Part shown: positions 2,986 to 36,898 of the stretch, one piece after another
Layout of the letters: every line of letters starts with the position of its first letter
Numbering within the stretch: position 1 is the stretch's first letter
DNA from: a virus
Taxonomy: Duplodnaviria > Heunggongvirae > Uroviricota > Caudoviricetes
Strand: one strand, 5' to 3'
DNA length: 43,605 nt
IMG/VR virus record: IMGVR_UViG_2579778674_000006
Span: 1-43,605 of that record
The notes under the pieces: model-generated
What the model was told of the DNA's origin: nothing
What the model saw: the letters and a program-made list of their open reading frames with translations, nothing else
Database searches by the model: none
Made by a program: the position numbers and the translations under genes

Positions 2986-3830
2986 CACAGACACCAGGCC
3001 GGGTTGTTGCTGTATGCCGGCTTAAACGTTCCGTCCCAGATACCGCTGTATTGCCGCGTCTGCGGGTTATAGTTCGACGGCACCTGCAGAATGCGCCCAC
3101 GAAGATGATAATTACGGCTCACCTGCTGGCTGCCGAACTGCTCCGAGTCCACCTGCACGCCGACCAGTGCCGTGTTCGGGTAGCACTGTTTCACATCGAT
3201 GATTTCGGTGTATGACGACCAGAGCGTTTTGTTCTGCAGCTGGTCTGTGGTGCTGTCCGGCGTCATCCTGCGCATCCGTATATTGAACGGGCGCGGCGGC
3301 AGGTTACCCACCACCACCGAGGCCAGATACTGCGAGGTGGTTTTGCCCTTAATGGTGATGTCTTTTTCCGTCACCCAGCCACCATTACGCTGTATCTGAA
3401 CCAGCAGGCGGACTTCCGACGGATTCCGGTCCCCCTTTGAGGTGGTTTCCACCAGTGCCTGTACACCGAAGGTAAAGCGCAGACGGTCGATGTTTGCCGA
3501 CGTGATGGTCCGGGTGATCGGCGTGTCATATTTCACTTCCGTACCCAGCACCGTCTCGGAGCCGGAGGATTCAAATCCCTCCGGCGGTGACTGCTCCTGC
3601 TCACCGGCCCGGAACACCACCGTGACGCCGGATATATTGGTATTCCCCTCACAGTCCAGCACCGGCGTACTGTTCAGCAGCACGCTTTTTAATCCGTCCA
3701 CCGGACCTTCAACCGGCCCTTCGCTGATGGCATCGATCACACTCAGCAGCTGCGTGGACTTCAGGTTGTCCTTCGCTTCGCGCGGGGTATGCCCCTTACT
3801 GCTGCCTTTACCCATTCCTCACGCTCCATA

Positions 3831-21665: not shown

Positions 21666-21740
<75 letters not shown>

Positions 21741-21743
21741 CAT

Positions 21744-21820
<77 letters not shown>

Positions 21821-21821
21821 A

Positions 21822-21898
21822 CTGGACCGCCACCGGGGACTCGAACCTCGCACACTCAACTTAAAGGGTTGACGCTCTTTCCTGATGAACTGGTGACG
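21822..21898 (-). tRNA. tRNA-like gene, anticodon UUU if the loop is read canonically (Lys?), with unusual C33
   Basis: 77-nt cloverleaf, acceptor CCGTCAC/GTGGCGG with one G-U pair, anticodon loop CCUUUAA, T-loop TTCGAGT, CCA end; one T-stem mismatch. Confidence 0.5.
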
Positions 21899-21899
21899 G

Positions 21900-21975
21900 T
21901 TGGTGGCCCTTGCTGGATTTGAACCAGCGACCTGGCGATTATGAGTCGCTCGCTCTCACCACTGAGCTAAAGGGC
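21900..21975 (-). tRNA. tRNA with CAU anticodon (Met or lysidine Ile2, ileX-like)
   Basis: 76-nt cloverleaf, perfect acceptor GGCCCTT/AAGGGCC, anticodon loop CUCAUAA, T-loop TTCAAAT, CCA end. Confidence 0.8.
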
Positions 21976-22093
21976 CGGGCGCAGGATAATAACGTTACGA
22001 AATCAATGTTGCAAGCATTCAAAAATCACCTGGTTAAAAATCACCCTTAGCTCCTCCACCAGCGCATTCACCATGTCTATCCGAGATAAGTGG

Positions 22094-23244: not shown

Positions 23245-24363
23245 TTACCCGAGCACGCCGGTTGCAAAGGCGTGATCAAGAAAACGAAAAATTAAATCAA
23301 CCTGGGAACCATGCTTTTCTTCGAACGCCAGCGGATCCGCATGAAGTTCGTTGTGATGTTCCCGGCACAACGGTAGCGTGAAAATATCGTGGGCCTTTGT
23401 TCCCATCCCTCCCTGACCGTGACCAATCAGGTGATGGGGATCGTCGGCTGGCTGACCACAACACGCACACGGCTGTGTCTTCACCCAGCGCGTATATTTC
23501 TCATTTACCCAACGGCGACGTTTAGGTCGCCTCATGAAAGATTCCGGAGACTCCGGATCAACAGCAATGCTGACCACCGTCTTTTCCTGTGGCGGGTTTT
23601 GCTGGTGGGCGTGAGGCAGCGGCGCAAGATTTTTTGTGCGCTGCTTCAGTATGCTGGTGGCGGTCTGCTCTCCCGGTACGATGTCGCTTTCACGGTACAT
23701 TGAACGGATTTTTTCCGCACGCAACCCCAGCGAACGACGTAATACCGCTTCCGGTAGCGCGTCCGCCACCTGATTGCGGACCGCCCACCAGGATAATTCA
23801 GCCAGAGATAATTCACGCTCCTGCGTACCGCTTATTGCGTGACCGATGACGTCAATCATCCATGCTGACAGGTTTTGATGAGCAAGTTGCCCGAGTGATT
23901 CGGATGTCTGGTCACGCAGCTGGTTGTCGCAGTGCCAGCACAACACCATTGCGCCGGTACCATAACGGTGAATGACGGTTTCGCTGTGATGATAATCGCC
24001 GTGTGGCCACTGGCAGGATTTAATATGGCGCAACAGCCAGTCAGACAATGCACCAGCACCACCAGCAGCACGAATCACCCGCTCATCGCTGAAAAATGGC
24101 AGTAATGATTTATCCTCCGCCAGCGGCTGGCGAACGGCAGGGACGACTCCGGACGGCAGACCGCGCATGCTTTTCGGTTCAGGCTCCACCAGCACTCGAG
24201 GGTTATGAAATACTTGCATGGATTCACGGCCCGGCCTAAGGACCACCAGCCCAAGTTCCGGTACCAGAACAGGTCGAAGTAATATCCGCACGTTACCTCC
24301 AGATCCGTTGCTGGTATGTGCGGGATGGGCGCGGTGGGCGTTCGGAATAAGGGAGCCTGACAT
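23245..24363 (-). CDS. DUF968 / YdfU-like phage protein with C-terminal Cys/His cluster
   Basis: ORF 372 aa; true start may be the internal MQVFHNPRVLVEPEP (at 24219); C-terminus CACCG...HHLIGHG...CREHHNELH. Confidence 0.7.
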   Translation of the reverse strand: MSGSLIPNAHRAHPAHTSNGSGGNVRILLRPVLVPELGLVVLRPGRESMQVFHNPRVLVEPEPKSMRGLPSGVVPAVRQPLAEDKSLLPFFSDERVIRAAGGAGALSDWLLRHIKSCQWPHGDYHHSETVIHRYGTGAMVLCWHCDNQLRDQTSESLGQLAHQNLSAWMIDVIGHAISGTQERELSLAELSWWAVRNQVADALPEAVLRRSLGLRAEKIRSMYRESDIVPGEQTATSILKQRTKNLAPLPHAHQQNPPQEKTVVSIAVDPESPESFMRRPKRRRWVNEKYTRWVKTQPCACCGQPADDPHHLIGHGQGGMGTKAHDIFTLPLCREHHNELHADPLAFEEKHGSQVDLIFRFLDHAFATGVLG

Positions 24364-24652
24364 AGATTATCCAGTGACGATAATCGAGGCTGAGGGCTTT
24401 CTTAACCTCGTATCCGCGCCTGCGGTAACACTGAATTATCCATTCCGCCTGCTCTTCAGTGCATGGAGGATGCTGGAACCAGTCTGATTTGAATACGTGA
24501 AAACGCCGTCCGCGCCTGCTGGCAAAGACGGCAGAATCATTAGAATTGTGTAATTTGGTATCGTGCGCCATCGGTTGTCTCTGCTGGCGCAGCAGGTGCC
24601 AGTTGTTCAGGCTGGCGTGCGTATTGTAAACCAGAATGCCAGAAAAAAACAA
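24293..24652 (-). CDS. Hypothetical protein (start and extent uncertain)
   Basis: 119-aa ORF; its 3' part overlaps the upstream extension of the YdfU-like ORF in another frame. Confidence 0.35.
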   Translation of the reverse strand: MFFSGILVYNTHASLNNWHLLRQQRQPMAHDTKLHNSNDSAVFASRRGRRFHVFKSDWFQHPPCTEEQAEWIIQCYRRRGYEVKKALSLDYRHWIIYVRLPYSERPPRPSRTYQQRIWR

Positions 24653-24798
24653 AACCCGCCGAAGCAGGTATGCTAAAACAAACTGAAGGTAATATGCCGG
24701 ACTTGTAAAGGAACGATAGAATAATTATCGGATTAAATCCTGACTCAATCCATAGGGTTTACAGCGTTTTCACTAATAATTTACCGTCCCGCTATACA

Positions 24799-25191
24799 TT
24801 ACTGCCCAGTTTTAACGAAGTTTTTAAAGGAAACAACTGCCTGATAGGGGTTTGGTTGACAGCCAAACATATTATCGCAAAAAGGCTTGATGAAAATTCT
24901 TGAGGATCCATCTTCATTTGGCATTTTACTCACTTGATAAGCGAGGAATGGACTATTTGGAGAGGGATTATAAGTGGAAATTAGCGTGTCTGTCGCCGTT
25001 TGAATTTTCCATGAGGAATTATTAGCCAACCAGAATTGCGCTCGTTTCCAATAAAAGTCACATTGCTTTTCATCATTACATGTTAGTGGCTTCATTGCTT
25101 CTGCTTTCAACGCTGGATCGACCTTTGCTGCACACCCTCCCAACATTACTGTTGCAATCATTACACCTGCGACTAAAACAAGTTTCTTCAT
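24799..25191 (-). CDS. Prophage lipoprotein of unknown function
   Basis: 130-aa ORF, signal peptide with lipobox MLGGC, four further Cys; AT-rich codon usage. Confidence 0.7.
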   Translation of the reverse strand: MKKLVLVAGVMIATVMLGGCAAKVDPALKAEAMKPLTCNDEKQCDFYWKRAQFWLANNSSWKIQTATDTLISTYNPSPNSPFLAYQVSKMPNEDGSSRIFIKPFCDNMFGCQPNPYQAVVSFKNFVKTGQ

Positions 25192-25334
25192 CTCCCTGCC
25201 CCATCAATAAAAGTTCGGTTCTCTAATAACTAGAGTTAATCAACGGAAAAAACGCCGAAGCGGGTTAAGTGCGGGTGCGTTGAGGATGCCTGACACATCA
25301 GAGGTGGCGAGGGATTTCTCCCCCGCCTGGTCTC

Positions 25335-25490
25335 TTACTCCTCAGGTTCGTAAGCTGTGAAGACAGTGACCTCCGTCTGGCCGGTTCGGATTCGTACCTC
25401 GCAGAGGTCTTTCCTCGTTACCAGTGCCGTCACAATGACGGTTAAACAGATGACGATCAGGGCGATTAACATCGCCTTTTGCTGCTTCAT
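25335..25490 (-). CDS. hok: Hok/Gef-family type I toxin; the in-frame upstream ORF to 25547 is a possible mok-like leader frame
   Basis: 51-aa product MKQQKAMLIALIVICLTVIVTALVTRKDLCEVRIRTGQTEVTVFTAYEPEE, near-identical to HokD/RelF as I recall it. Confidence 0.85.
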   Translation of the reverse strand: MKQQKAMLIALIVICLTVIVTALVTRKDLCEVRIRTGQTEVTVFTAYEPEE

Positions 25491-25743
25491 AGCCTGCTTC
25501 TCCTTGCCTTTCGGCACGTAAGAGGCTAACCTAGATTTGCCGTTCATAGATTGAGCCTCAGATTAATGTTAAGCGTCTTGCAGGACGCGTAATGTTAACT
25601 GGGGCTTTTCTCTATCTGCCTTTGGTGTTCATGCCTGAGGCAGATAGCCTCAAGCACCCGCAGCAATTCTACTTAAGTTAGATAAGCTTTTCTATGGTAT
25701 TCTCTCAGCGTCCCGTAAATACAGTCTCGGCTCATCATTTTTA

Positions 25744-26007
25744 TCACAGGTGCGAGGAAAATATATAGCGCCCTCCATCAAGCATAACGAAATACATTTT
25801 CCATTCATCGCCATTCCTCAATTTAATACGAAGACTTTCCCCGCAAGTGTATTTATTAAACAACTGTTCCGATGTGCTAGTAAGAGGTATTTTTACCGTT
25901 ATTACAACTACTGCCCCACCATTTAACTCTCGAAGTTCAGCATCCGCATCCACAAAAGATGAATAAATGTTATGATCTGGGTAATCAACAATTAACTGCA
26001 TATTCAC
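25744..26007 (-). CDS. Hypothetical small protein upstream of hok
   Basis: 87-aa ORF, AT-rich, no recognisable family. Confidence 0.45.
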   Translation of the reverse strand: MNMQLIVDYPDHNIYSSFVDADAELRELNGGAVVVITVKIPLTSTSEQLFNKYTCGESLRIKLRNGDEWKMYFVMLDGGRYIFSSHL

Positions 26008-26140
26008 TCCTTAAATATAGCAACTAAAACAAACAACGATTTAACAGTAGGAATTGTTTTTATAACATATGAACGGTGCAAGATCTATCCAGATGAAGCC
26101 TCCCCTCACACCCCCCGTCTCATTACATGCATTTACTATC

Positions 26141-26656
26141 TCACCGTAAAACATCCTCCACGCTTATCAGTCCGTTTCGCTTCAGGTAGTCCATCGCCTT
26201 CTCCGGTAATTTGCAGTCCGGCTTGGCTTTTTTCAGTTGGCTGACCAGTCGTTTAACCCACATTGTTAATTCGCTAACCTGATTGCCGGAAGCTGGTGGG
26301 TTGTCGGCTTTACCCAGAATGACAGCACTGCAGGCCTCTTTGAGTACCCAATCAACAGCATCTTTCCATGCTCCTGTTTCGACTGGTGGATTCTCACGCT
26401 TTACCTGTTCATAAAAGCGCACGGCTTTAACCAGTCCTTCTGATGTCAGTGGCACAGGCGGGGCAGTGAATAACGCCTGAATTTCATAGCTCGGCCTGTC
26501 GTTGCAATCCTCTTTTGTCGGTACATATTTCCAGTCACCAACCCACGGCTCCCCCTGTGAGTCCGTAATGCCTTTTTTCACGTAGCGATATCGCCATGCA
26601 ACTGGTTTTGCCTGCCCTGCCGTTTCATGTCCTTCCTGATAATTAATCTCGCTCAT
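26141..26656 (-). CDS. Hypothetical phage protein (nin-region)
   Basis: 171-aa ORF with 4-bp overlap to the next gene. Confidence 0.55.
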   Translation of the reverse strand: MSEINYQEGHETAGQAKPVAWRYRYVKKGITDSQGEPWVGDWKYVPTKEDCNDRPSYEIQALFTAPPVPLTSEGLVKAVRFYEQVKRENPPVETGAWKDAVDWVLKEACSAVILGKADNPPASGNQVSELTMWVKRLVSQLKKAKPDCKLPEKAMDYLKRNGLISVEDVLR

Positions 26657-30924: not shown

Positions 30925-31490
30925 AGCTAACCAACGAAGCTAAGGTTGGTAATTAAGGAGTTCTCCACGGGTGAGGTGGAGTGCGTGCGCCGGACACGGG
31001 TGAGCATCCGGCACTGACAGTTTACTGAAAGGATATTTCCCTGAAAAGTCAGACCATAACGCGAAAGCGCACGGCGAGGTAGCTGGTTCATAGATAGCCT
31101 GTCGTTAAATTTTCGTCGACCGTGCGCTTCCGGTTGTGGCACTCCGCGAAATGGCGCGGCGGTAAGTATGGCGGGGTTATTCCTTCCCCGTTGAGGACAC
31201 CGGGTTGTCAGGTTGACCATACGCTTAAGTGACAACCCCGCTGCAACGCCCTCTGTTATCAATTTTCTGGTGACGTTTGGCGGTATCAGTTTTACTCCGT
31301 GACTGCTCTGCCGCCCTTTTTAAAGTGAATTTTGTGATGCGGTGAATGCGGCTAAGCGCACGCGGAACAGTTAAAACCAAAAACAGTGTTATGGGTGGAT
31401 TCTCTGTATCCGGCGTTAATTGTTAACTGGTTAACGTCACCTGGAGGCACCAGGCACCGCATCACAAAACTCATTGTTGAGGGCGCGATA
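30925..31490. other. ORF-free, GC-rich, self-complementary segment: candidate structured RNA or regulatory region
   Basis: No credible ORF on either strand; several mutually complementary segments (gccgga/tccggc, cgtgcgc/gcgcacg, ggagtgc/gcactcc, ggttgtca/tgacaacc). Confidence 0.4.
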
Positions 31491-34460: not shown

Positions 34461-34664
34461 ATGAGCAGCTTATTTTTAACCGAAGATGAATTGCTAATAT
34501 TAACGGGCTGCAAATATGCAAGCCACCAGCGAAAATGGTTAATGGAAAACGGGCTTCCGTTCTATACCAATCGTAGTGGCAAACCGATTGTCAGCCGGGA
34601 TCTATTTACCTGCAATAAAACTTTACCACCACGCGAGGTAGAGCCGAATTTTGGTGCGATCTGA
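34461..34664 (+). CDS. xis: Excisionase-like protein
   Basis: 67-aa ORF immediately upstream of and overlapping the integrase start. Confidence 0.6.
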   Translation: MSSLFLTEDELLILTGCKYASHQRKWLMENGLPFYTNRSGKPIVSRDLFTCNKTLPPREVEPNFGAI

Positions 34665-35689
34665 TGGGAAGACGAAGGAAAAATCCTGAACACGAAAAAT
34701 TACCTCCAAATGTATACCCAAATAAATATAGTTATGTATGGAAACCAACATCCAGAGAATCTGTCACACTAACCGCCATCAAGGATGGTTTAGCTGCTTT
34801 ATGGAAAAAGTATGAGGAAACTGTAAATAATCGCGATCGTGCAATGACATTCGGTCGCTTGTGGGAAAAATTCCTCGCCAGCGCCTATTACAGTGACCTT
34901 AGTCCAAGAACACAAAAAGATTATCTGCAACATCAAAAAAAGTTGCTTGCCGTATTCGGTAAGGTACCAGCGGATTCCATAAAACCAGAACACATCCGTC
35001 GATACATGGACAAAAGAGGGGAGCAGAGTAAAACGCAAGCCAACCATGAAAAAAGCAGTATGTCCCGTGTTTACAGTTGGGGGTATGAGCGAGGGTACGT
35101 GAAGGCTAACCCATGTGCAGGTGTAAGTAAATTCAAGGCCAAAAACCGCGAACGATATGTAACCGACAAAGAATACCAGGCAGTATTAAGCGTTGCACCT
35201 CTTCCTGTTTTTATCGCAATGGAAATTGCCTATCTGTGTGCAGCGAGGGTTTCCGATGTGTTATCGCTGAAATGGGAACAGATTGGAAACGACGGGATAT
35301 TCATCCAGCAAGGGAAAACCGGAAAAAAACAGATAAAAGCATGGAGTCCACGATTACAGGCAGCGATCGAAAAAGCAAAACAGTTACCAAAATCTGCCTA
35401 TGTGATCAGCAATCAATACGGCAACCGATATATGTACAAAGGCTTTAACGAAATGTGGGTAGATGCAAGAAATCGTGCTGGAAAAATTTCAGGTATTTTA
35501 ACCGACTTCACCTTTCATGATCTGAAGGCGAAAGGAATTTCAGACTATGAAGGAAGCAGCCGGGATAAGCAACTTTTCTCTGGTCACAAAACCGAAGGGC
35601 AAGTGCTAATCTATGACAGGAAGGTTAAAGTTTCACCAACACTTGATGTCCCGTTACCTGAAAATATTCCAAGAAAATATTCCAAGTAA
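34664..35689 (+). CDS. int: Tyrosine integrase
   Basis: 341-aa ORF with C-terminal catalytic-type motifs (FTFHDLKAKGIS ... LIYDRK); adjacent to the tRNA-Ser 3' end. Confidence 0.9.
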   Translation: MGRRRKNPEHEKLPPNVYPNKYSYVWKPTSRESVTLTAIKDGLAALWKKYEETVNNRDRAMTFGRLWEKFLASAYYSDLSPRTQKDYLQHQKKLLAVFGKVPADSIKPEHIRRYMDKRGEQSKTQANHEKSSMSRVYSWGYERGYVKANPCAGVSKFKAKNRERYVTDKEYQAVLSVAPLPVFIAMEIAYLCAARVSDVLSLKWEQIGNDGIFIQQGKTGKKQIKAWSPRLQAAIEKAKQLPKSAYVISNQYGNRYMYKGFNEMWVDARNRAGKISGILTDFTFHDLKAKGISDYEGSSRDKQLFSGHKTEGQVLIYDRKVKVSPTLDVPLPENIPRKYSK

Positions 35690-35741
35690 TTCCAAGTGTG
35701 ATTTTTGTCACTGACTTAATGATGTGTAAGTGATTGAATTT

Positions 35742-35831
35742 TGGCGGAGAGAGGGGGATTTGAACCCCCGGTGGAGTTGCCCCCACTCCGGTTTTCGAGA
35801 CCGGTCCGTTCAGCCGCTCCGGCATCTCTCC
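35742..35831 (-). tRNA. serU: tRNA-Ser (anticodon CGA), serU-like; prophage attachment site at its 3' end
   Basis: 90-nt class II tRNA GGAGAGATGCCGGAGCGGCTGAACGGACCGGTCTCGAAAACCGG...GGGGGTTCAAATCCCCCTCTCTCCGCCA. Confidence 0.9.
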
Positions 35832-36822: not shown

Positions 36823-36898
36823 TCCTCTGTAGTTCAGTCGGTAGAACGGCGGACTGTTAATCCGTATGTCACTGGTTCGAGTCCAGTCAGAGGAGCCA
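36823..36898 (+). tRNA. asnT: tRNA-Asn (anticodon GUU)
   Basis: 76 nt TCCTCTGTAGTTCAGTCGGTAGAACGGCGGACTGTTAATCCGTATGTCACTGGTTCGAGTCCAGTCAGAGGAGCCA. Confidence 0.95.

Follow-up and report, generated by a model that had tools for sequence, protein, structure and literature searches.

A probable mosaic of three cargo cassettes, including a hok/mok/sok locus, in a lambdoid prophage of E. coli

The AT-rich stretch at positions 24653-26140 of a 43,605-nt viral DNA (Caudoviricetes; IMG/VR record IMGVR_UViG_2579778674_000006; the whole DNA is hereafter called the window) is probably a mosaic of three separately acquired and independently assorting cargo cassettes, which would form no functional system together. 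Its setting appears to be a lambdoid E. coli prophage of the Rac/Qin type, integrated beside tRNA-Ser, in which it occupies part of the early-right operon (from the replication genes towards Q). Judged by its sequence elements, the middle cassette is a complete hok/mok/sok type I toxin-antitoxin locus of the hokD/hokW type. It lies between a cassette that carries a 130-aa lipoprotein gene and another that carries the gene of an 85-aa orphan protein (Table 1). Because a well-known hok/mok/sok locus is flanked here by two separately acquired AT-rich passenger genes, we regard the stretch as largely ordinary. The first-pass annotation had described these three genes as non-core cargo in a lambdoid prophage, and this was borne out; the ORF listing puts all three on the minus strand. 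The nin genes that it placed next to the block turned out to be something else, since the downstream neighbours are phrog_660, phrog_519 and a DUF7167 gene, which are uncharacterised Rac-type early genes.

Table 1. Positions in the window of the cassettes, genes and RNA elements, from left to right within each group
Feature	Coordinates	Strand	Basis or remark
Lipoprotein cassette	24670-25246	.	577 bp, 39.3% GC; BLAST break-points against related locus L004
hok/mok/sok cassette	25247-25676		51.4% GC; break-points against related loci
85-aa gene cassette	25677-26140	.	464 bp, 38.1% GC; break-points against related locus L003
Intrinsic terminator after the lipoprotein gene, ACCTGCTTCGGCGGGT then TTTGTTTTTT	24644-24669	-	Scan and fold
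130-aa lipoprotein gene	24799-25191	-	ORF listing; phrog_16082
hok terminator remnant, ACCCGCTTCGGCG then TTTTTT	25247-25265	-	3' arm shortened by the cassette junction
Full-length hok mRNA, ~413 nt	25247-25659	-	Rfam RF01794, minimum-energy fold, hokW identity
3' fbi element of hok mRNA	25273-25285	-	Pairs with tac in the fold
hok, 51-aa membrane toxin	25335-25490	-	Pfam PF01848, phrog_251, RefSeq of a near-identical locus
mok, 70-codon frame starting upstream of hok and in frame with it	25335-25547	-	ORF listing; mokW alignment
Sok promoter, TTGCCT-17 nt-TAACCT	25504-25532	+	Read directly from the sequence
Sok antisense RNA, 71 nt	25539-25609	+	Transferred from annotated sokW of AF125520 by alignment
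5' stem-loop of hok mRNA	25612-25647	-	Rfam alignment and minimum-energy fold
5' tac element of hok mRNA	25648-25659	-	Pairs with fbi in the fold
hok promoter, TAGAAA-17 nt-TAGAAT	25666-25694	-	Promoter scan
85-aa orphan protein gene	25744-26001	-	AAGGAG 5 nt before the ATG at 26001

The GC content of the whole block was 42.7% as compared with 50.6% for the window, which places it in the lowest 0.4% of segments of equal size. It was thus AT-rich as first described, but the low GC was confined to its outer parts (39.3% for 24670-25246 and 38.1% for 25677-26140), whereas the hok part, with 51.4%, was average for the window. These three parts were delimited by BLAST break-points against four related loci, and they differed widely in how often they occur. 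Among 5426 complete E. coli genomes, the hok module (at least 80% coverage) was present in 4020, the lipoprotein cassette in 255 and the 85-aa gene cassette in 42, and all three were found together in 16 only. With separate boundaries and such frequencies, the block could no longer be taken as one unit, as the first-pass annotation had done. PADLOC models gave 0 matches for the six proteins in and around it.

The Hok frame matched the Pfam Hok/Gef family over model positions 1-42 of 42, with 77.4 bits for a cut-off of 22 (E 6e-22), and phrog_251, labelled 'MokW-like host killing', with an E value of 5.9e-32; close copies are named HokD by RefSeq. As compared with HokD (RelF) of K-12, the protein presumably carries a single residue change, Thr42 for Ala. 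A Hok toxin with an in-frame leader had been proposed from the start, and the leader is mok: its position and length equal those of the annotated mokW of 933W in the alignment. Translation of mok is required for translation of hok. At the RNA level, RF01794 was matched on the hok-sense strand at 25485-25659 with 111.7 bits (gathering score 59), and the hok mRNA stretch was 93-96% identical to hokW of 933W. In the minimum-energy fold of 25245-25659 (z = -6.0), nt 1-12 were paired with the fbi region at 25273-25285. We compared the hok promoter in ~60 loci. The -10 element (TAGAAT) was kept in nearly all of them, with two variants, TAAGAT and TAAAAT, and the -35 region varied with the upstream neighbour. 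Here, the -10 lies inside the conserved hok module and the -35 inside the adjoining 85-aa cassette.

Sok had been expected on the plus strand opposite the leader, and there it was found, although at 25539-25609 and without the 9-bp-stem hairpin that had been associated with it. The predicted RNA begins with an unpaired 5' tail of 14 nt, continues into a long terminator stem-loop (25553-25607) and ends with UUUU; it folds at -30 kcal/mol (z = -5.6) and spans the mok start codon of the opposite strand. The northern probe YO-592, used for sokW in PMC8621323, maps to 25539-25568 of the window. The Sok promoter overlaps the hok Shine-Dalgarno region of the other strand. It was not among the hits of a simple consensus promoter scan, but to judge by primer YO-421, the mutation that silenced sokW in PMC8621323 targets this -10. 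The 9-bp stem (ctatctgcc/ggcagatag) does exist, about 2 nt from where it had been placed, with its arms at 25612-25620 and 25639-25647, but it belongs to the 5' stem of the hok mRNA. Indeed, the hairpin occupies positions 13-48 of the hok transcript, where it is the first paired element after tac, within the RF01794 leader. We rejected it as a Sok structure, as it lies just past the Sok U-run and the 3' end at 25609. The Rfam 'sok' match was likewise rejected as a marker of the strand of the Sok gene, because the model fits the leader in the hok sense, as far as the hok AUG.

The steps by which hok/mok/sok loci work are established knowledge of the family, of which this locus shows the sequence elements only. 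A weak constitutive promoter would give a stable hok mRNA, closed by pairing of its 5' (tac) and 3' (fbi) ends. Short-lived Sok would pair across the mok start, so that mok translation, and with it the coupled translation of hok, would be blocked. Once Sok synthesis stops, because the prophage is induced, the element is lost or transcription is shut off, Hok would be made and would damage the inner membrane. The same design, that is, tac/fbi closure, mok-coupled translation and a tailed antisense Sok with a terminator hairpin, is found in hok/sok (parB) of plasmid R1, and the leader matches the Rfam model built on the hok/sok family. Since the locus is prophage-borne, however, post-segregational killing of plasmid-free cells is not an obvious role for it here. 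Maintenance, help in lysis and abortive infection have all been proposed as roles of hok in prophages.

The hok module is 93.5% identical in DNA over 414 bp to hokW of hokW-mokW-sokW, carried by the Stx2 phages 933W and Sp5, and has the same hok/mok/Sok layout and the same Sok promoter -10; the first Sok nucleotides differ from those of sokW because mok codons 2-5 differ. The two loci also differ in their surroundings. hokW lies near the right end of the Stx phage, whereas the present locus belongs to the early-right part of a Rac/Qin-type prophage and has the lipoprotein cassette interrupting its 3' terminator. For hokW-sokW, the toxicity of Hok and its neutralisation by Sok were demonstrated, and the locus was found to hasten lysis and to double the phage yield after induction (PMC8621323). 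HokW is ~44% identical to Hok of R1 (PMC8621323), a relation that extends to the present Hok by likeness. More generally, prophages are enriched in hok (bioRxiv 10.1101/2025.08.07.668861).

The lipoprotein cassette sits inside the hok terminator hairpin, between hok and rem, and is missing where related prophages join rem straight to hok. Break-points against one related locus, L004, overlapped by 19 bp, and thus 24651-24669 and 25247-25265 form a direct repeat. In L004, the intact hok terminator, AACCCGCTTCGGCGGGTTTTGTTTTTT, folds at -11.4 kcal/mol. The sole terminator-like site in a scan of 24200-26300 was the one after the lipoprotein gene (24644-24669), with a hairpin of -8.7 kcal/mol. The alignment pairs it with the one hok terminator of phage vB_EcoS-813R8, and its 3' arm and T-run are those of the original hok terminator. 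As for the remnant left after hok (25247-25265), folding predicted no canonical hairpin; it retains a 3-bp stem and T6 and may allow partial termination. Of the 50 IMG/VR loci that yielded the fbi-end anchor motif, 49 had the identical junction. E. coli-type copies of the lipoprotein gene adjoined hok in all 52 viral contigs with enough flank, and in E. coli the gene is always 147 bp downstream of hok. We attribute this constant adjacency to a single insertion, because the junctions are identical and the copies 95-100% identical.

No sigma-70-like promoter match was obtained in 25192-25246, between the hok terminator remnant and the lipoprotein gene, with a scan that is a crude consensus search; AT-rich morons often have non-canonical promoters. 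We infer that in lysogens, transcripts started at the hok promoter would read through into the gene, which would be transcribed with the early operon once the prophage is induced. The cassette resembles the lambdoid morons, such as bor and lom of lambda, in being an AT-rich single-gene insertion of variable presence, with a terminator at its downstream end. Classical morons bring their own promoter, whereas none was detectable here; what lies upstream of the gene is the hok promoter, the hok terminator between them being disrupted.

The lipoprotein with a lipobox was found as first described. Its signal peptide and lipobox read MKKLVLVAGVMIATVMLGG followed by C, that is, MKK-LVLVAGVMIATVM-LGG/C20 with Ala at +2, which fits a charged N-region, a hydrophobic core and the lipobox [LVI][ASTVI][GAS]C. 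Ala at +2 is the rule for sorting to the outer membrane. The lipobox Cys was invariant in 81 family members (consensus L-x-G-C), and Cys38, Cys44, Cys105 and Cys111 were conserved in the family alignment. The protein matched phrog_16082 from end to end (E 2.6e-84). Matches to Pfam, NCBIfam and PADLOC were absent, and Pfam also matched none of the 81 family members. The family profile returned only noise against PDB sequences (E>0.3). With at least 1134 representatives (clusters at 50% identity, E<=1e-3), the family is large; dN was 0.14-0.25 for the lipoprotein, with synonymous sites saturated. The AF2 model was confident (pLDDT 93.8) and showed a TBP-like/helix-grip fold. The same alpha+beta fold is found in two bacterial lipoproteins, Flpp3 of Francisella (DUF3568) and the N-terminal domain of BamC. 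Sequence identity to them is 12-13%, the profile of the DUF3568/Flpp3 family does not match, and the four conserved cysteines are a feature that sets the present family apart from both. Altogether, lipidation at Cys20 and sorting to the outer membrane are predicted for the product, which would adopt a TBP-like/helix-grip fold with two stabilising disulfides.

Chromosomes of Burkholderiales and others also carry members of the lipoprotein family as stand-alone genes, and some members are fused to PDZ domains. This wide chromosomal spread, together with the PDZ fusions, suggests a general function in the envelope more than one specific to phages. Homologues of 68-85% identity without hok within 4-5 kb came from Pantoea-type phages, where they lie in tail/moron regions, and from the remnant of a Phytobacter prophage. 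A genome-context search among species-representative genomes gave no confirmed locus for the close alignment and 7 Burkholderiales loci for the mid-range alignment; as these have no common neighbouring gene, genome context yields no functional clue.

The third gene had been read as an 87-aa protein without a family. That length corresponds to a start at the GTG at 26007 (ORF 25744-26007); the ATG at 26001 is the better start, and the resulting 85 aa are also RefSeq's annotation. The other half of the claim stood, as no Pfam, NCBIfam, PADLOC or PHROG family matched, and the family profile gave only noise against PDB sequences (E>0.3). Homologues fell into 15 clusters only, in which every source-named one was from E. 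coli, and a second search with the family alignment brought no more distant relatives. A variant of the gene was found without hok, and in strain CFS3313 and others the cassette is replaced by an unrelated 104-bp stretch. The product would be a cytoplasmic orphan protein, and its cassette would also supply the -35 box of the hok promoter. Family searches placed neither accessory protein in a well-characterised phage family, which the first-pass annotation had named as a refuting outcome, and literature searches by RefSeq accessions, by the Rac phage record and by gene names returned nothing on either of them.

As to the role of the lipoprotein, the likeliest is that it alters the envelope by lysogenic conversion, for instance to exclude other phages, but this is a guess. 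It is possible, though doubtful, that it masks a receptor for superinfection exclusion in the way of Cor (phi80, N15, HK022) or Llp (T5), both of which render the phage's outer-membrane receptor inactive. Cor and Llp are likewise small outer-membrane lipoproteins encoded by accessory genes of temperate or virulent phages, and the present protein is prophage-borne and predicted to reach the outer membrane. cor and llp sit beside receptor-binding genes; in Pantoea-type phages a 76-85% identical homologue lies among tail-tip genes (K-, I- and J-like), which resembles that placement, whereas the gene in the window does not lie beside a receptor-binding gene but in the early region, between hok and rem. 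A weak PHROG match to Cor did exist, yet it covered the signal peptide only (residues 1-44, E 0.007) and no stretch of it passed alone. Past the signal peptide we saw no likeness to Cor or Llp in the sequence or fold of the mature domain, the fold matches pointing elsewhere, and the viral structure library held nothing at E<=0.001. The wide occurrence of stand-alone, partly PDZ-fused chromosomal relatives also speaks against receptor masking. A fuller scenario, which we hold to be unlikely, is that a phage-borne member of an undescribed proteobacterial family captured the constitutive hok promoter by breaking its terminator; it would be co-made with the hok mRNA in lysogens as a conversion or exclusion factor, and the longer 3' end might alter the 3' processing that activates the hok mRNA.

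The other readings concern the hok locus, the 85-aa frame and the block as a whole. That the locus is a decayed and inactive relic, like the chromosomal hok loci of K-12, is very unlikely. In its favour, the hok terminator is disrupted here and K-12 hokD, in which relBE stands in place of the mok/sok leader, presumably has no upstream regulatory region; also, chromosomal hokA, hokB and hokC mediated no post-segregational killing according to the literature. The present leader is complete, however, and the hok -10, tac, the mok and hok frames, the Sok promoter (with the -10 of functional sokW), the Sok terminator and fbi are all intact. Moreover, HokD is among the previously characterised toxic homologues that served as positive controls in a recent Hok peptide survey. 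It is more improbable still that the 85/87-aa frame arose by chance in AT-rich spacer DNA. Such an origin would agree with the lack of a family in any library searched, with the AF2 model (pLDDT 58, no reliable fold) and with a dN/dS of ~1 against the closest copy, a value that is based on just 9 substitutions. Against it are a strong Shine-Dalgarno sequence at the right spacing, a frame kept at full length at 72% identity and a dN/dS of 0.27-0.44 against diverged copies; the ORF is a real gene, on which purifying selection acts to all appearances, and it is confined to prophages of E. coli. The least probable reading is that Hok, the envelope lipoprotein and the small accessory protein make up one cooperative exclusion or defence island. 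The genes are adjacent, closely spaced and on the same strand, the lipoprotein is probably on the hok transcript, and its fixed distance from hok in E. coli could alone suggest a functional linkage. In addition, hok/sok of plasmid R1 was reported to lower T4 plating (work cited in PMC8621323). Yet each cassette has its own indel boundaries, the frequencies are unequal and the three rarely coincide, PADLOC gave no match, and hok loci are not enriched near defence systems according to the literature. The cooperation with hok hinted at earlier therefore has no comparative support, given the separate boundaries and frequencies and the diverged homologues of both accessory genes that exist without hok.

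The hok/mok/sok locus adds nothing new: prophages carry thousands of nearly identical copies of this well-studied system. The results on the lipoprotein family and on the junction are of modest value and, short of a phenotype, leave current understanding unchanged. The lipoprotein marks out a proteobacterial family that is widespread but unnamed in curated libraries and for which a confident structural model is now available; experiments on it could start from the four conserved cysteines and the PDZ fusions. The insertion point within the hok terminator provides a concrete and testable case of a passenger gene that may rely on the promoter of a toxin-antitoxin locus for its expression in lysogens.

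The finding lies in a lambdoid prophage of E. coli, in which all early-right genes, including the three of 24653-26140, are on the minus strand. RefSeq genomes with near-identical loci annotate them as 'hypothetical protein' genes plus hokD. DicF marks the immunity/early-left region as Qin/dicB-type. At the other side, the Met-cat tRNA of the phage-borne cluster is called Ile in the RefSeq annotation of related genomes. A 341-aa ORF, probably the integrase, stops 53 bp from tRNA-Ser(cga), and the prophage end and attachment site likely lie there (34664-35831). RefSeq shortens the ORF listed as 119 aa from a TTG at 24652 to 92 aa, with its start at 24571. This protein corresponds to Rem, the small protein adjoining hokD in Qin; its gene shares 71 bp at the 3' end with the 5' end listed for the YdfU-like ORF.

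Features in and around 24653-26140
Feature	Position	Strand	Remarks
Left side	left of 24653-26140		tail, head and lysis genes, four tRNA genes, Q, rusA, DUF968/YdfU gene
tRNA cluster	21667-21976	-	Gly-tcc, Thr-tgt, Lys-ttt, Met-cat; between Q and lysis genes
rem	24293-24571	-	phrog_1212; Pfam 'Rem' family in precomputed annotations
Lipoprotein gene, 130 aa	24799-25191	-	lipobox LGG|C20
hok, 51 aa	25335-25490	-	Pfam Hok/Gef, E 6e-22
Sok promoter	25504-25532	+	TTGCCT-17 nt-TAACCT, directly upstream of Sok; read from sequence
Sok	25539-25609	+	transferred by alignment with 933W (mokW, hokW, sokW annotated)
hok promoter	25694-25666	-	TAGAAA-17-TAGAAT; promoter scan
85-aa gene	25744-26001	-	
Right side	right of 24653-26140		Rac-type early genes: phrog_660, DUF7167, DUF977, replisome organiser, YdaT/YdaS-like genes
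Further right	beyond Rac-type early genes		DicF RNA, integrase, tRNA-Ser
DicF, full-length	31265-31316	+	Rfam, 76.7 bits
tRNA-Ser(cga)	35742-35831		
tRNA-Asn	36823-36898		

The GC content of 24653-26140 was 42.7% versus 50.6% for the window, within the lowest 0.4% among same-size windows. The first-pass annotation had described an AT-rich block with three ORFs; this observation is confirmed, and the interpretation built on it is partly supported. Low GC did characterize the outer lobes (39.3% at 24670-25246 and 38.1% at 25677-26140), but the stretch is not one unit: its centre (25247-25676) reached 51.4%, and BLAST break-points divided it into three cassettes. The Hok ORF, which matches Pfam Hok/Gef, and the leader in frame with it are the known mok/hok pair. 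The ORF taken to encode 87 aa exists, but its start is more likely ATG 26001, 5 nt after AAGGAG, which gives 85 aa as in RefSeq.

BLAST against related loci gave sharp break-points. In phage vB_EcoS-813R8 (L004), rem is joined straight to hok, and the phage matches 24200-24669 and 25247-25683, both matches overlapping by 19 bp in the phage. By this comparison, the 577 bp at 24670-25246 are an insertion between short direct repeats. Strain CFS3313 matches up to 25676 and resumes at 26141, with an unrelated 104 bp between, which indicates that 25677-26140 is a second indel. Sequence shared with the Stx2 phage 933W was limited to 25263-25676. Among 5426 complete E. coli genomes, the hok module was present at a coverage of at least 80% in 4020 (any match, 4728), and hok-like copies per genome had a median of 2 and a maximum of 10; the lipoprotein cassette occurred in 255, the 85-aa cassette in 42, and the whole arrangement in 16.

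Cooperation of the flanking genes with hok had been hinted at, and in E. coli the lipoprotein gene is tightly linked to hok. Among 59 IMG/VR contigs carrying this gene, hok lay upstream in all 52 E. coli-type copies (95-100% identical) with enough flank, at exactly 147 bp in 50 of them, and rem and ydfU followed downstream wherever the flank sufficed. Four diverged viral copies (76-85% identical) are surrounded by lambda K-, I- and J-like tail genes, and neither hok, rem nor ydfU was found near them; hok was also absent within 5 kb of the homologues in a Pantoea prophage and in the remnant of a Phytobacter prophage. As for the 85-aa gene, it was present in only 5 of the 59 contigs. A 72%-identical copy lies directly upstream of hok and rem, and a 111-aa variant occupies the same early region of other E. 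coli prophages without hok. We read the tight linkage as left by a single insertion that spread by recombination, not as functional coupling. The comparative evidence argues against the lipoprotein and 85-aa genes working with hok as one system; both are uncharacterised passengers of a known kind, AT-rich morons. Two IMG/VR contigs (L028 and L050) carry an extra ~1.3 kb and ~0.4 kb between hok and the lipoprotein gene, probably insertions at this junction and possibly IS elements.

The Rfam 'sok' model RF01794 matched 25485-25659 (111.7 bits; gathering score 59) on the minus, hok-sense strand. Given this strand and its end at the hok AUG, the model recognises the hok leader, not the antisense gene. 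Sok itself (71 nt) overlaps only in part the 25548-25650 proposed earlier. Its predicted fold leaves the first 14 nt unpaired, ahead of a single long hairpin that is followed by UUUU (-30 kcal/mol, z = -5.6). The 9-bp hairpin assigned to Sok is real, at 25612-25647, but falls just beyond the Sok 3' end and is the first hok mRNA stem-loop after tac. In the predicted fold of the hok transcript region (25659 to 25245, 415 nt), the first 12 nt (tac) pair with 25273-25285 (fbi) (z = -6.0). With Hok, leader, Sok, both promoters and the tac-fbi pairing all found, the defining hok/mok/sok elements are, as judged from sequence, intact, and this part of the finding is already known.

In the hok family, a stable closed mRNA is translated by coupling to mok, unstable Sok blocks translation, and Hok is made when Sok synthesis stops. 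Here likewise, the hok mRNA would be closed and stable and translated via mok, unstable Sok would block translation, and Hok would be made once Sok synthesis ceases. The Tyr47 codon of hok, UAC, is followed by G (25349-25352, minus strand), and UACG is the TadA A-to-I editing motif. According to the Hok survey preprint, such editing turns Tyr into Cys in hokB, with similar recoding in hokC, hokD and hokE; if it occurred here, it would create the second cysteine of Hok. For hokW-sokW, experiments showed toxicity and its rescue by sokW, located Hok to the inner membrane, and found that sokW is lost after mitomycin C and that phage yield is two-fold higher (PMC8621323). The sokW northern probe corresponds to 25539-25568, and the primer for the promoter-less mutant replaces, by our own reading, the complement of TAACCT (PMC8621323). 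A recent survey found hok four-fold enriched in prophages, with no enrichment near defence systems (bioRxiv 10.1101/2025.08.07.668861).

Mok codons 2-5, which coincide with the first Sok nucleotides (25539-25552), show ~8 differences from sokW, in contrast with ~96% identity to 933W over the rest of the locus. Because E. coli genomes commonly hold more than one hok-like copy, this divergence might prevent cross-reaction between co-resident Sok RNAs. Across ~60 related loci, the edge of the conserved module splits the hok promoter, leaving the -10 box inside and the -35 box outside. Nearly all loci have the -10 TAGAAT (there are two variant forms), whereas the -35 region comes from at least three upstream sequences unrelated to one another, so how strongly hok is transcribed may depend on the neighbouring cassette.

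The terminator that closes the hok mRNA of L004, AACCCGCTTCGGCGGGTTTTGTTTTTT, is canonical (-11.4 kcal/mol). In the window, the lipoprotein-cassette junction lies inside the 3' arm of this terminator: hok is followed by ACCCGCTTCGGCG and then TTTTTTCCG, in which the canonical hairpin was not predicted. The junction was identical in 49 of 50 viral loci having the anchor motif. The sole terminator-like site in the scan came after the lipoprotein gene (ACCTGCTTCGGCGGGTTTTGTTTTTTT, -8.7 kcal/mol), and the 55 bp separating the terminator remnant from the lipoprotein start codon gave no sigma-70-like promoter. Given a disrupted terminator, an intact one after the lipoprotein gene and no promoter between, the simplest reading is that this gene is probably transcribed by read-through from the hok promoter. 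In most E. coli copies, a further 69 bp, able to form a small hairpin, separates the stop codon of the lipoprotein gene from the terminator (3354-3422 in the related locus L001; window 24752/24754); this segment is missing from the window and a few genomes, e.g. CFS3313.

Enterobacter, Pantoea and Phytobacter encode close homologues of the lipoprotein (67-85% identical), annotated as 'hypothetical proteins'. An exhaustive profile search retrieved 1134 cluster representatives at E<=1e-3, 504 of them at E<=1e-10; the members with a source name are from Hafnia, Citrobacter, Burkholderiales and Alphaproteobacteria, and all of these are unannotated. No Pfam model matched any of 81 members; in PHROGs, the family is phrog_16082 and, more distantly, phrog_4186, neither with an assigned function. 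In these 81, the lipobox cysteine, Cys38, Cys44 and Cys105 were invariant and Cys111 nearly so, a pattern that fits two periplasmic disulfides. Some members bear a C-terminal PDZ domain and one a tandem duplication. The lipoprotein is under strong purifying selection (dN 0.14-0.25, synonymous sites saturated). No shared neighbouring gene was found across seven Burkholderiales loci. Analogy and the tail-gene context in Pantoea-type phages are the sole basis for the idea that the lipoprotein might be an exclusion factor. In these phages, the homologue is followed by another small lipoprotein gene, unrelated to it and with the lipobox LSGC or MVGC (L068 4374-4784; L069 4332-4679; L006 5374-5721), the start of this second gene overlaps the stop of the homologue, and lambda I- and J-like tail genes come next.

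Collectively, the most useful new points are an unnamed lipoprotein family with a confident predicted fold and the insertion of the lipoprotein cassette into the hok terminator. If read-through does occur, the lipoprotein cassette would be an unusual moron without a promoter of its own.
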